Of a DNA stretch of 64,000 nucleotides, positions 12,209-14,550 are shown in pieces. The DNA is taken from contig JAIPGM010000003.1 of assembly GCA_021735655.1 (NCBI GenBank), forward strand, positions 96,001-160,000, in the 5' to 3' direction. The position numbers and the translations under genes are program-made. How positions within the stretch are numbered: the first letter of the stretch is position 1; each line of letters begins with the position of its first letter. Under the pieces are notes generated by a model. It was not told the DNA's origin, ran no database searches, and saw only the letters and a program-made list of their open reading frames with translations. Source of the stretch: Candidatus Omnitrophota bacterium. GTDB lineage: Bacteria; Omnitrophota; Gorgyraeia; Duberdicusellales; 4484-171.

Positions 12209-12912
12209 GGAAATTGGTAATATTTTTATTATTAGTGGTGAGTTTTCAGTTTTTAAGCTATGGTCAAAGTATTAAGGAACGCTTTAAGGGGCAGGATAAG
12301 CTAATTTATGAGGTTTACTACAATGGGATGTTTTCCGGTCATATCTATTGGAGCTATAAAGGGACTGAAAAGGTTGAAGGCGGGCTGGCTGATGTGATCC
12401 ACGTAAGTTCTGATACTAAGATTTTAGGCTTACTGGATTTAACCAGCGATGAAGATGTTTTCCTTGATTCGGAAAATCACCTTCCGCTTAAAGTAAAGCG
12501 AAATATAGTTATGTTTGGCAAGAAAGAGCTGATTGATGAGATTTACGATCAGGGAAAAGGTTTTGTGCGGTTAATTATAAGAGGCGATGAAGCCAGAGAG
12601 GAAATTATTTCTCAGGATAAGCCAATTCATAATATTTTGGCCTTGCTTTATTTTTTCCCGCAAAATGTTAAGTTAGAAAAAGATCGATGGATGAACTTCA
12701 ATCTTCCTACCCAAAAGATAAAGATAAAATTTATCAAAGAGCGACCTCTAAAAACAGATACTGGAGAAGTTGATACTTATTTTTTAATTGGTAGGGGGGC
12801 CAAGCGCTTTAGTCTCTGGATGGATAAAGTTACCCGCATGCCTCTGCGTCTTGAGTTTGTTTCTCTTCTAGGAAAGGTTAGCATTGTGAGAGCCGAAGAA
12901 AACCAGCCTTAA
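12205..12912 (+). CDS. secreted hypothetical protein (DUF3108-like)
   Basis: Signal peptide MRKLVIFLLLVVSFQFLSYGQS, 235 aa, no recognisable catalytic motif. Confidence 0.5.
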   Translation: MRKLVIFLLLVVSFQFLSYGQSIKERFKGQDKLIYEVYYNGMFSGHIYWSYKGTEKVEGGLADVIHVSSDTKILGLLDLTSDEDVFLDSENHLPLKVKRNIVMFGKKELIDEIYDQGKGFVRLIIRGDEAREEIISQDKPIHNILALLYFFPQNVKLEKDRWMNFNLPTQKIKIKFIKERPLKTDTGEVDTYFLIGRGAKRFSLWMDKVTRMPLRLEFVSLLGKVSIVRAEENQP

Positions 12913-13514
12913 TTAAGAGTCATCGTTGTTACAATGTCGTCACAGCTGTATTCGTGTCCATCTGGGCCAAATGAAAGTAAAACCGGAGGAGCAATGGGTG
13001 TAGCTGTGCTGCCGCCGTTAGCCACACAAACTTCTCTGGCTGAGGAATTATCGCAGGCTGAATCGCTGTAAACATTTTCACATGGGCTAACTCCACCGCA
13101 GCCCGGTGGAGCACAAAAAGCGTAATCAGGGTCATATAAATAGGCATTTTTCCAGAAGTCAAGGCCATTACTTTCAATATATGGGCCATCCCAGGCATTA
13201 ACTGCACCTTGGGTCCATTGGCAGCCGCCAACAGGAGCTGCCTCGAAGTCTGGTTTTGTAATAAGACCGGCATTTGAGGCATTGATATAAGTTTCAGGAT
13301 CTGTTTGAGTAAAAGCTAAACAGCCTCTAATAACCTTTCCAGTGTCAGCATAAAGGGCAGTAGTTCCAGTTTTTATTGATTTTAAATCAGCAGTTGTCTT
13401 AGCTGCCCGGGCTTTCTCAATTGCTTTAAAAGCATTGGGTGCGATTATTGCAGCTAGAATGGCAATGATCGCGATAACTACGATTAGTTCAATAAGCGTA
13501 AATGACTTTTTCAT
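12909..13514 (-). CDS. type IV pilin-like / T2SS GspG-like pseudopilin (prepilin N-methylation domain)
   Basis: MKKS|FTLIELIVVIAIIAILAAI with Glu+5. WDGPY motif as in the GspG DPWGNPY. Cys-rich C-terminus. AGGAGG RBS. Confidence 0.8.
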   Translation of the reverse strand: MKKSFTLIELIVVIAIIAILAAIIAPNAFKAIEKARAAKTTADLKSIKTGTTALYADTGKVIRGCLAFTQTDPETYINASNAGLITKPDFEAAPVGGCQWTQGAVNAWDGPYIESNGLDFWKNAYLYDPDYAFCAPPGCGGVSPCENVYSDSACDNSSAREVCVANGGSTATPIAPPVLLSFGPDGHEYSCDDIVTTMTLN

Positions 13515-13527
13515 CAAAATACCTCCT
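13415..13527. repeat. 113-bp perfect direct repeat, copy 1 (RBS plus first ~33 codons of the pseudopilin)
   Basis: Identical to 14394..14506. Confidence 0.85.
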
Positions 13528-13683
13528 TTTAAAGCATTGTATCATTGATTGAAAAAATTTTAAATTAGATTGATTGGTTATAATTTGTTATTTAGGATTA
13601 TAGGAAATGAGGATAGTTTTGACATTCTAGAGGAAAAGATTGAAAGTCTGCCAGTGATGCTGTATCCAGGAGGTTAGTTTATA

Positions 13684-13812
13684 TTATTCAACATCCCCTA
13701 TTTCAGCTATAGGATCATAATATTCTGATTCCACTTGGTTTGCTGAGGGCGTAGTTTTTTGCGAAGAACAGGCCATTGTCATAACTATAGCTAATAATAA
13801 AAATATTTTCAT
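13684..13812 (-). CDS. small (42 aa) putative secreted or lipoprotein ORF between the two pseudopilin genes
   Basis: AGGAGT RBS 8 nt before the ATG. MKIFLLLAIVMTMAC|SSQ signal and weak lipobox. Below the ORF-track size cutoff. Confidence 0.3.
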   Translation of the reverse strand: MKIFLLLAIVMTMACSSQKTTPSANQVESEYYDPIAEIGDVE

Positions 13813-13887
13813 CTTAACAATACTCCTGGTTAATTTTAAATAAAAATCCGATCAATTTTTTCGTTTTTAACTTAACTAATTAAAAAC

Positions 13888-14493
13888 CTAATCGGGATAA
13901 GTCTGAATGAACATGTCGTAAGAATAATATTGCTTCTGAGCAGCAGCATAATACCTTCTATGGCGACCGCTGTTATATACGCCGTCATCGGTTATTTCAT
14001 CTATTTTATCTAGAATTTTTTGAGGCATTCCACAAGTATTAGTCGCTGGCGAAACCGGAGAATAACAACGAAAGTAACGAGTATAACGCACACCTCTAGC
14101 CCAAGAGAGTGTAGTTCTGGCGTCATAGAGTAGATAATTAGTTCCACCCCAACGATTTAGAGCTGACATTTTTTCCATGTAAGGGCCTTCCCAGCCGAAC
14201 CACCCAGAAGCATTAGTCATTAAATTGCTGGGATCCCAGCCAGTATATTGAGTGTCGTCGAGCCTTGCGTAATTGTATCCAGTGGCTGGCATAGTGGCTC
14301 GCCATCCCGGAAAATGACCGGTATCTGCATATAAAGACATTATTGCTGTTTTAAGACTCTTTGCCTCAGCTATGTCAGCAGAGATTTTGGCCTTCTCAAT
14401 TGCTTTAAAAGCATTGGGTGCGATTATTGCAGCTAGAATGGCAATGATCGCGATAACTACGATTAGTTCAATAAGCGTAAATGACTTTTTCAT
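13888..14493 (-). CDS. type IV pilin-like / GspG-like pseudopilin, paralog
   Basis: Same N-terminus MKKSFTLIELIVVIAIIAILAAIIAPNAFKAIEKA, WEGPYME motif, AGGAGG RBS, its own TTGAAA-17-TATACT promoter. Confidence 0.8.
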   Translation of the reverse strand: MKKSFTLIELIVVIAIIAILAAIIAPNAFKAIEKAKISADIAEAKSLKTAIMSLYADTGHFPGWRATMPATGYNYARLDDTQYTGWDPSNLMTNASGWFGWEGPYMEKMSALNRWGGTNYLLYDARTTLSWARGVRYTRYFRCYSPVSPATNTCGMPQKILDKIDEITDDGVYNSGRHRRYYAAAQKQYYSYDMFIQTYPD

Positions 14494-14506
14494 CAAAATA
14501 CCTCCT
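14394..14506. repeat. 113-bp perfect direct repeat, copy 2
   Basis: Identical to 13415..13527. Confidence 0.85.
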
Positions 14507-14550
14507 GTAAAAAAGTATATCATTAATTGGGGGTAATTTCAAATCGAAGT

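Follow-up and report, generated by a model that had tools for sequence, protein, structure and literature searches.

An exact 114-nucleotide repeat at the 5' ends of two tandem pilin-like genes in Candidatus Omnitrophota, a probable product of short gene conversion

Two adjacent pilin-like genes, here called A and B, lie in a 64,000-nucleotide (nt) stretch of DNA from a Candidatus Omnitrophota bacterium (GenBank assembly GCA_021735655.1, contig JAIPGM010000003.1, positions 96,001 to 160,000). This whole stretch, hereafter the window, belongs to a 278,835-bp contig of a metagenome-assembled genome (MAG) built from run SRR12088349. A and B begin with an exact direct repeat that runs from the ribosome-binding site (RBS) into codon 34. 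We consider short, homology-limited gene conversion between these two resident tandem paralogs to be the best explanation of the repeat, and a probable one. The two genes, the repeat copies and an unlinked paralog, C, are placed as follows.

12909..13514, minus strand: pilin-like gene A, 201 amino acids (aa), MKKS/FTLIE..., Cys-rich globular part (open reading frame [ORF], Pfam and TIGR02532 evidence)
13888..14493, minus strand: pilin-like gene B, 201 aa, MKKS/FTLIE..., aromatic-rich globular part with a KIDxxxDDG motif (ORF, Pfam, NCBIfam and homologs)
13414..13527, minus strand: repeat copy 1, comprising the RBS AGGAGG, ATG and codons 1 to 33 (plus 2 nt) of gene A; exactly identical to copy 2
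14393..14506, minus strand: repeat copy 2, comprising the RBS AGGAGG, ATG and codons 1 to 33 (plus 2 nt) of gene B; exactly identical to copy 1
13528..14392, minus strand: unique DNA between the copies, with the globular part of B, a 42-aa ORF and the promoter of A
29375..29992, plus strand: unlinked paralog C, 205 aa, MIREG/FTLIE..., same N-domain protein in different codons

The two copies are identical at 114 of 114 nt, in direct orientation and with a spacing of 979 nt. A preliminary description of this DNA had placed the identity at 13415 to 13527 and 14394 to 14506, on the same strand and over the AGGAGG RBS and the prepilin N-domain; this is exact, except that the run is one base longer (114 rather than 113 nt), and it extends from the RBS through codon 33 (plus 2 nt). 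In coding orientation, the tract reads AGGAGGTATTTTG, ATG, 33 codons and two nucleotides of codon 34, and the identity therefore spans the silent sites of 33 codons plus 13 untranslated nucleotides. In both genes, AGGAGG is separated from the start codon by a 7-nt spacer, and the two proteins are identical through residue 35 (MKKS/FTLIELIVVIAIIAILAAIIAPNAFKAIEKA, that is, MKKSFTLIE...AIEKA). The 64-kb window holds no other direct repeat of at least 40 nt, and the only inverted matches of the tract within it are to the distant paralog C, at 72 to 84%. An exact 38-nt piece of the tract gave no match in 185,579 GTDB species genomes, indicating that the tract is not shared by other species and that the source genome is not among the species representatives.

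The N-domain protein is nearly invariant across hundreds of Omnitrophota pilins, so the A-B identity has to be judged against the nucleotide identity between paralogs with the same peptide. From the GTDB species genomes, a degenerate back-translated pattern retrieved 61 genomic stretches, which together with the window yielded 97 pilin 5' regions from 18 Omnitrophota genomes and 998 within-genome pairs. The mean identity of these pairs was 75 of 93 nt (typically ~81%), and it was 77 of 93 nt in the 556 pairs whose 31-aa N-domains are identical. Their longest exact run had a median of 14 nt and a 99th percentile of 35 nt. Exact runs of at least 95 nt were found in 3 of the 998 pairs: that of the window (114 nt), a pair of MAG JAIPHU at locus L044 (107 nt, from the ATG to ...EKAK, with Gly at position -1) and a pair of MAG JAHKAJ at locus L061 (95 nt). 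Chance and amino acid constraint are thereby excluded as causes of the 114-nt identity; constraint combined with codon bias was likewise rejected by the 998-pair baseline. The silent-site identity of A and B lies far above that of the family and has sharp boundaries and, as had been proposed, the DNA of the tandem pair is specifically homogenized, to a degree that the shared protein does not demand (114 of 114 nt versus a mean of 77 of 93).

Adjacency sets these outliers apart. All three belong to the 35 adjacent same-strand pairs and none to the 963 others (Fisher p = 4e-5), and the remaining adjacent pairs are slightly more similar to each other than distant pairs are (p = 0.0016). The three tracts share their 3' limit, ...AIEKA(K/R), whereas their 5' limits differ (RBS, ATG and codon -1), as conversion limited by homology would predict. 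Of the earlier proposal of gene conversion or recombination between pilin loci, the general idea stands as the best explanation; an exchange of 5' cassettes between loci is not shown, and the data do not call for one. The comparison with individual relatives goes in the same direction. Counted from the Phe codon, A and B are identical at 89 of 89 nt, while the tract matches the A ortholog of locus L069 at 71 of 89 and the B-type gene found at the same site in L073 at 68 of 89; A and B are thus closer to each other than to their orthologs, a relation that says little about timing since the relatives are distant. Three other paralogs of this sample that encode the same N-domain protein (C, P0150 and P0009) are identical to the tract at only 71 to 75 of 89 nt (C, 75 of 89). 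Indeed, C encodes the same 31-aa mature N-domain by different codons (77 to 78 of 93 nt identical to A and B) and with Gly at -1, as the preliminary description had stated; it has a weaker AAGGAAG in place of AGGAGG.

An exact repeat in a MAG may also be produced by the assembler, through a collapsed or duplicated repeat, a misjoin of two pilin loci or graph simplification that homogenizes similar copies. The collections searched contain one assembly of the source species, a single-sample MAG, and for protein A as for protein B a single contig is on record. Moreover, exact look-ups of both proteins, with three alternative starts, gave no match in a gene-position index that includes the Logan assemblies; the proteins were recovered through homology search. 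We therefore compared the window with a second, independent assembly of run SRR12088349, the Logan contigs, which we take to derive from a k=31 graph. Two of these contigs cover window positions 14477 to 22739 and 4205 to 13443 (8.3 and 9.2 kb) with 0 mismatches, and they end exactly 30 nt (k-1) within the repeat, the first counted from the upstream edge of copy B and the second from the downstream edge of copy A. Such ends mean that the reads hold two contexts on each side of a shared sequence, and a 31-mer graph that breaks at a true repeat also explains why full-length A and B are absent from the index. The same pattern occurs in two MAGs of other studies, and the contig names of one of them, JAHKAJ, carry k141, a word length greater than its 95-nt repeat. 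Wholesale duplication of the repeat by the assembler is thus unlikely, the earlier suspicion of an artifact is largely dispelled, and we hold an assembly origin in any of these forms to be very improbable. For the assembly and binning of these genomes, it follows that pilin arrays will break short-k assemblies.

How the tract may have formed can be outlined. A and B are diverged members of a family of class III signal peptide (type IV pilin- or pseudopilin-like) proteins that is very large in Omnitrophota, and the near-invariant 31-residue N-terminal helix of this family leaves every paralog pair already ~80 to 85% identical in that part of the gene. The 979-bp spacing and the common orientation may then have let homologous recombination copy, recently, the segment from the RBS to codon 34 of one gene onto the other, presumably by a RecA-dependent route in which sister or misaligned copies form a heteroduplex that is then repaired. 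The tract ends at the limit of family conservation, with no homology further on. How the copying proceeded at the molecular level, which way it went and whether it was neutral are inferred: since no amino acid is changed, the tract may represent a neutral footprint of ongoing recombination and not a new function. Once present, the 114-nt direct repeats would render the intervening 979-bp unit (the globular part of B, the small ORF and the promoter of A) prone to deletion or amplification. Indeed, the unique DNA plus one repeat copy makes up a 979-bp unit that recombination between the repeats would delete, leaving gene B deletion-prone.

Some observations weigh against gene conversion or narrow its reach. 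The ortholog N-domains are equally distant from the tract (71 and 68 of 89 nt) and, with their silent sites saturated, point to neither gene as the donor and do not date the event. Typical paralog pairs seldom have exact runs (median, 14 nt) of a length suited to efficient RecA-type recombination, which makes the initiating homology marginal, unless A and B resembled each other more closely beforehand. The pairs compared were chosen through an exact 25-aa pattern, and two genomes dominate them. Finally, the source population is represented by a single read set, and the central 54 nt of each copy come from the MAG assembly, in which bubble-popping could have smoothed a few true differences; as to linkage, a deletion variant plus a 979-bp circle would be the alternative to the tandem.

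The history of the site bears on whether A and B were both resident when the repeat arose. The flanking genes, the other elements of the site and the content of the syntenic loci, which were fetched with the TrmI-like neighbor as the anchor, are listed below; orthologs of the DUF3108-like protein are present in L069, L071 to L073, L075 and L076.

14551..15312, minus strand: TrmI/GCD14-like methyltransferase, upstream anchor of the variable site (Pfam; synteny anchor)
12205..12912, plus strand: DUF3108-like protein, convergent with A, downstream anchor (Pfam score 25.2 versus a cutoff of 26, thus below cutoff)
13684..13812, minus strand: 42-aa ORF between B and A, a putative gene (translation) with its own AGGAG (13823-13827)
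13536..13564, minus strand: sigma-70-like promoter match upstream of A, TTTAAA-17-TACAAT with TG (consensus scan only)
14514..14542, minus strand: sigma-70-like promoter match upstream of B, TTGAAA-17-TATACT with TG (consensus scan only, 10/12 matches)
Window: B, the 42-aa ORF and then A between trmI and DUF3108
L071, the nearest long relative: nothing between trmI and DUF3108
L069: only an A-type pilin (P0002, at 67% identity to A and with Thr at -1)
L073: only a B-type pilin (P0126) between trmI and DUF3108
L072 and L076: lpxA between trmI and DUF3108
L075: a sigma/anti-sigma cassette (extracytoplasmic function sigma factor) and lpxA between trmI and DUF3108
L074: as L075 after trmI; the contig ends before DUF3108

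Such varied content between the same flanking genes identifies the site as a hotspot of gain and loss. It could also mean that the tandem is young, and that a structural event, either unequal crossing-over or a duplicative insertion, created the 979-bp unit by duplicating the resident 5' segment, the duplicated 5' cassette being joined to a globular part from another pilin locus. The closest relatives do hold no pilin (L071), an A type (L069) or a B type (L073) at this position, and in L069, where the A ortholog directly follows trmI without B or the small ORF, the DNA lacking relative to the window corresponds in structure to one repeat period. However, a single crossover between N-domains that are 80 to 85% identical leaves reciprocal hybrids, so that a copying or repair step is needed even if the tandem is young. 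Moreover, the presence of both A-type and B-type genes at this site in relatives fits a long residence, and the flanks carry no mobile-element genes. Taken together, we find a structural origin rather unlikely. A young whole-gene duplication giving A and B was rejected, as the proteins are only 29% identical beyond the tract.

The 42-aa ORF starts with a signal-peptide-plus-Cys sequence (MKIFLLLAIVMTMAC/SSQ...), which suggests, from its translation, a small lipoprotein. No homolog of it was found in any of the fetched loci, and it is absent from the relatives' version of the site. In some relatives, the pilin genes have a TATAAT 6 to 11 nt before the start codon and no Shine-Dalgarno sequence and look leaderless (L069, 150-215; L061, upstream of 2635, 4028, 4742 and 5577; L073, ~4775-4803).

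Selection on the nucleotide sequence itself, acting on a shared translation initiation region, a small RNA (sRNA) target or a DNA-binding site, would also preserve silent sites. The tract holds the RBS and the start region, and just upstream of it A and B are alike (CAAT(C/T)AATGATA...), with a TG-extended -10 match in both; promoter-like sites were scanned for and found for these two genes only. Nevertheless, regulation does not require 114 of 114 identities at synonymous sites, and the tract shows no RNA-structure signal beyond shuffles (z = -0.73), a value by which a structured RNA or leader element was rejected. Neither paralog C nor P0150, both encoded in this genome, carries the tract sequence, the orthologs share only 68 to 71 of 89 nt with it, and the tracts of the other two genomes differ in sequence and in 5' limit, one of them lacking the RBS. 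We consider such selection scarcely credible as the cause of the repeat.

Exchange among pilin paralogs is visible beyond the window. MAG JAHKAJ01 (GCA_018826075.1) holds at least 40 pilin genes with the near-invariant 31-aa N-domain, and a five-gene tandem array in it (L061, 2635-5651) is a mosaic, in which gene 1 has its promoter in common with gene 5 and its N-domain in common with gene 2. This array shows that exchanges among pilin paralogs recur. By analogy with antigenic variation, one might then imagine a programmed pilin variation in which globular cassettes are swapped or deleted by recombination at the invariant N-domain, their handle, so that the expressed pilin changes. Dozens of paralogs that combine such a handle with hypervariable heads (at least 40 in one MAG), mosaic arrays and a pilin content that varies at the trmI-DUF3108 site would suit this idea, as would the proposal that Omnitrophota are host-dependent or predatory and use type IVa pili (PMC10066038). 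Yet we see neither a dedicated recombinase nor inverted repeats, and no silent copies that lack a promoter, A and B each having a promoter-like site and an RBS; recombination between direct repeats leads to irreversible deletion, not to switching, and recent exchange is limited to 3 of the 35 adjacent pairs. A programmed system is thus highly improbable, and gene conversion between resident neighbors remains our preferred reading.

A and B can be assigned to the type IV pilin and type II secretion system (T2SS) pseudopilin superfamily (class III signal peptide). Protein A is identical to MCF7907870.1 (100%; named GspG at NCBI) and protein B to MCF7907871.1. Both score above the cutoffs of PF07963 (N_methyl; 28.1 bits versus 21.2) and TIGR02532 (22.6 versus 16.3), and both have Phe at +1, Glu at +5 and ~20 hydrophobic residues (α1N; FTLIELIVVIAIIAILAAII) followed by a globular domain. 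As in the superfamily at large, a short basic leader precedes the Phe, an α1 helix is followed by β strands, and a PilD is encoded in the genome. They differ from its usual members by Ser at -1, by GspG scores below the cutoff, by globular domains without a significant PDB neighbor and by their orphan genes. Against TIGR01710, the GspG equivalog model, A reaches 48.8 and B 44.3 bits versus a cutoff of 88.85, with matches confined to residues 4 to 53 and 4 to 65, respectively. Instead of GspE, GspF, GspD or minor pseudopilins, their neighbors encode TrmI-like, DUF3108, patatin and ApgM proteins. A scan of the ten largest remaining ORFs of the window brought up no pilus or secretion machinery, and PilD is the one such component found in the window.

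AlphaFold2 models built on family alignments predict a helix at residues 7 to 58 in both proteins, followed by short strands only in A (mean predicted local distance difference test [pLDDT] score, 76.9) and by a β sheet in B (pLDDT, 88.9). The best PDB matches of model A are GspG/PulG, with weak Foldseek E values of 0.08 to 0.5, and that of model B is Clostridioides difficile PilA1 (E = 0.02); no PDB neighbor of either model reaches E ≤ 1e-3. The globular parts would therefore be pilin-like, as judged from the models, yet distant from any solved structure. They are not unrelated, as had been thought, but are diverged homologs with pilin-like predicted folds, 29% identical over 97 aa (pairwise E = 4e-5) and sharing LYADTG and W(D/E)GPY motifs. 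Members of the A-type subfamily carry six Cys residues that are invariant or nearly so, together with a conserved GPDxxYTCDD motif at the C terminus, while B-type and most other members have KIDxxxDDG(D/N)L near the C terminus, possibly a metal-binding loop.

Both tandem genes encode Ser (TCA) at position -1 of the prepilin cleavage site, where C has Gly. This is a variant of the motif, not grounds for exclusion, as the profile still accepts Ser-1 proteins. The preliminary description had implied that it is special to the tandem pair, a view that the N termini from related genomes do not support: Ser is the commonest residue among 204 homologs (S 100, G 69, A 14, V 5, N 5, T 4, H 3, C 2 and F 2) and among the 97 genomic copies (S 49, G 35), where it is mostly encoded by TCN codons, and it dominates in two genomes (23 of 40 and 17 of 19 copies); conversely, the homogenized pair of L044 has Gly. 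Val, Thr, His, Tyr, Asn, Cys and Phe also occur at -1 in some members (P0150, P0002 and copies of JAHKAJ); P0150 lies on the same contig as the window (L084, 3001-3594). The prepilin peptidase of this genome and its surroundings are as follows.

27378..28199, plus strand: prepilin peptidase PilD (A24), with a four-Cys N-domain and both Asp motifs (PF06750, 3e-36; PF01478, 2e-12)

The cognate peptidase thus has both of its domains and both catalytic Asp motifs; no sequence relatives of it were found in the PDB. It was said to be next to C, but aroC (28214-29329) lies in between. The gene stands between the shikimate genes aroE (26473-27384, overlapping pilD by 7 nt) and aroC, all on the plus strand, with C immediately after, and positions 26473 to 29992 constitute an unusual operon context for a prepilin peptidase.

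Gly at -1 is described as crucial for PilD processing, with Ala tolerated, and G-1S abolished the processing of PilE1 in Streptococcus sanguinis (bioRxiv 10.1101/459388); the same source reports that -1 residues bulkier than Ala abolish processing in Pseudomonas aeruginosa. From this mutagenesis, -1 residues such as Val, Thr, His, Tyr, Asn, Cys and Phe should block a canonical PilD. Since about half of the pilins have Ser at -1, the Omnitrophota enzyme is predicted to have an altered substrate range and, judging by its apparent substrates, may accept Ser and other residues. Archaeal PibD is more permissive around the cleavage site (PMC4307647), and a similarly tolerant peptidase would account for Ser, Ala, Thr, Val, Asn and His at -1; PibD is, however, archaeal, bacterial tests call Gly-1 crucial, and cleavage in Omnitrophota is only predicted.

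These strands could be joined in one speculative scheme. Omnitrophota would keep dozens of pilin genes whose N-terminal segment, invariant as protein and recombinogenic as DNA, acts as a handle; homologous exchange there would reshuffle, delete and amplify head cassettes and their promoters, so that the pilus surface in contact with hosts or prey varies within the population; PilD would have relaxed its -1 requirement to Ser, Ala, Thr, Val, Asn and His; and the pair of the window would be a fresh junction. We regard this combination as unlikely. What the repeat itself indicates is that recombination among Omnitrophota pilin paralogs is recent, ongoing and concentrated on neighbors, which bears on how one reads the great number of pilin genes in these nanobacteria, which are uncultured and may depend on hosts. 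The lineage-wide non-Gly residue at -1 and the size of the pilin repertoire are the more useful leads. In the literature we consulted, whose coverage was incomplete, nothing was found on 5' homogenization of pilin genes or on Ser-1 in Omnitrophota, although papers mention type IVa pili.

Recombination at pilin loci takes several forms elsewhere. The Moraxella Piv inversion and the R64 shufflon rely on site-specific recombinases and inverted sites. They resemble the tandem pair in joining a constant N-terminal coding segment to alternative globular parts; here, in contrast, the repeats are direct and no recombinase gene lies among the neighbors. In Neisseria, the variable 3' part of pilE is converted from silent, promoterless, 5'-truncated pilS copies. 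Non-reciprocal recombination among several pilin copies of one genome would be common to both cases, but in the Omnitrophota pair it is the constant 5' part that is identical, and A and B look complete, with promoter-like sites and an RBS. Indeed, A, B and C are all full length with a start codon, unlike a set of silent 5'-truncated donors serving one expression locus, and no guanine quadruplex, sRNA element or silent cassette of the Neisseria kind was seen here.

The closest parallel is the concerted evolution of paralogs by short-tract gene conversion, as in tufA/tufB and the rRNA operons. As in those cases, the likeness of silent sites exceeds constraint, the edges are sharp, and proximity and a common orientation are favorable. 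Unlike in those cases, homogenization of A and B is limited to the first 114 nt, because homology is confined to them, and the rest is at ~29% protein identity; conversion is here the probable mechanism. Concerted evolution of paralogs is already known, as is recombination at the conserved 5' regions of pilin genes, and the tandem pair is a clean new example of them from an uncultured phylum.

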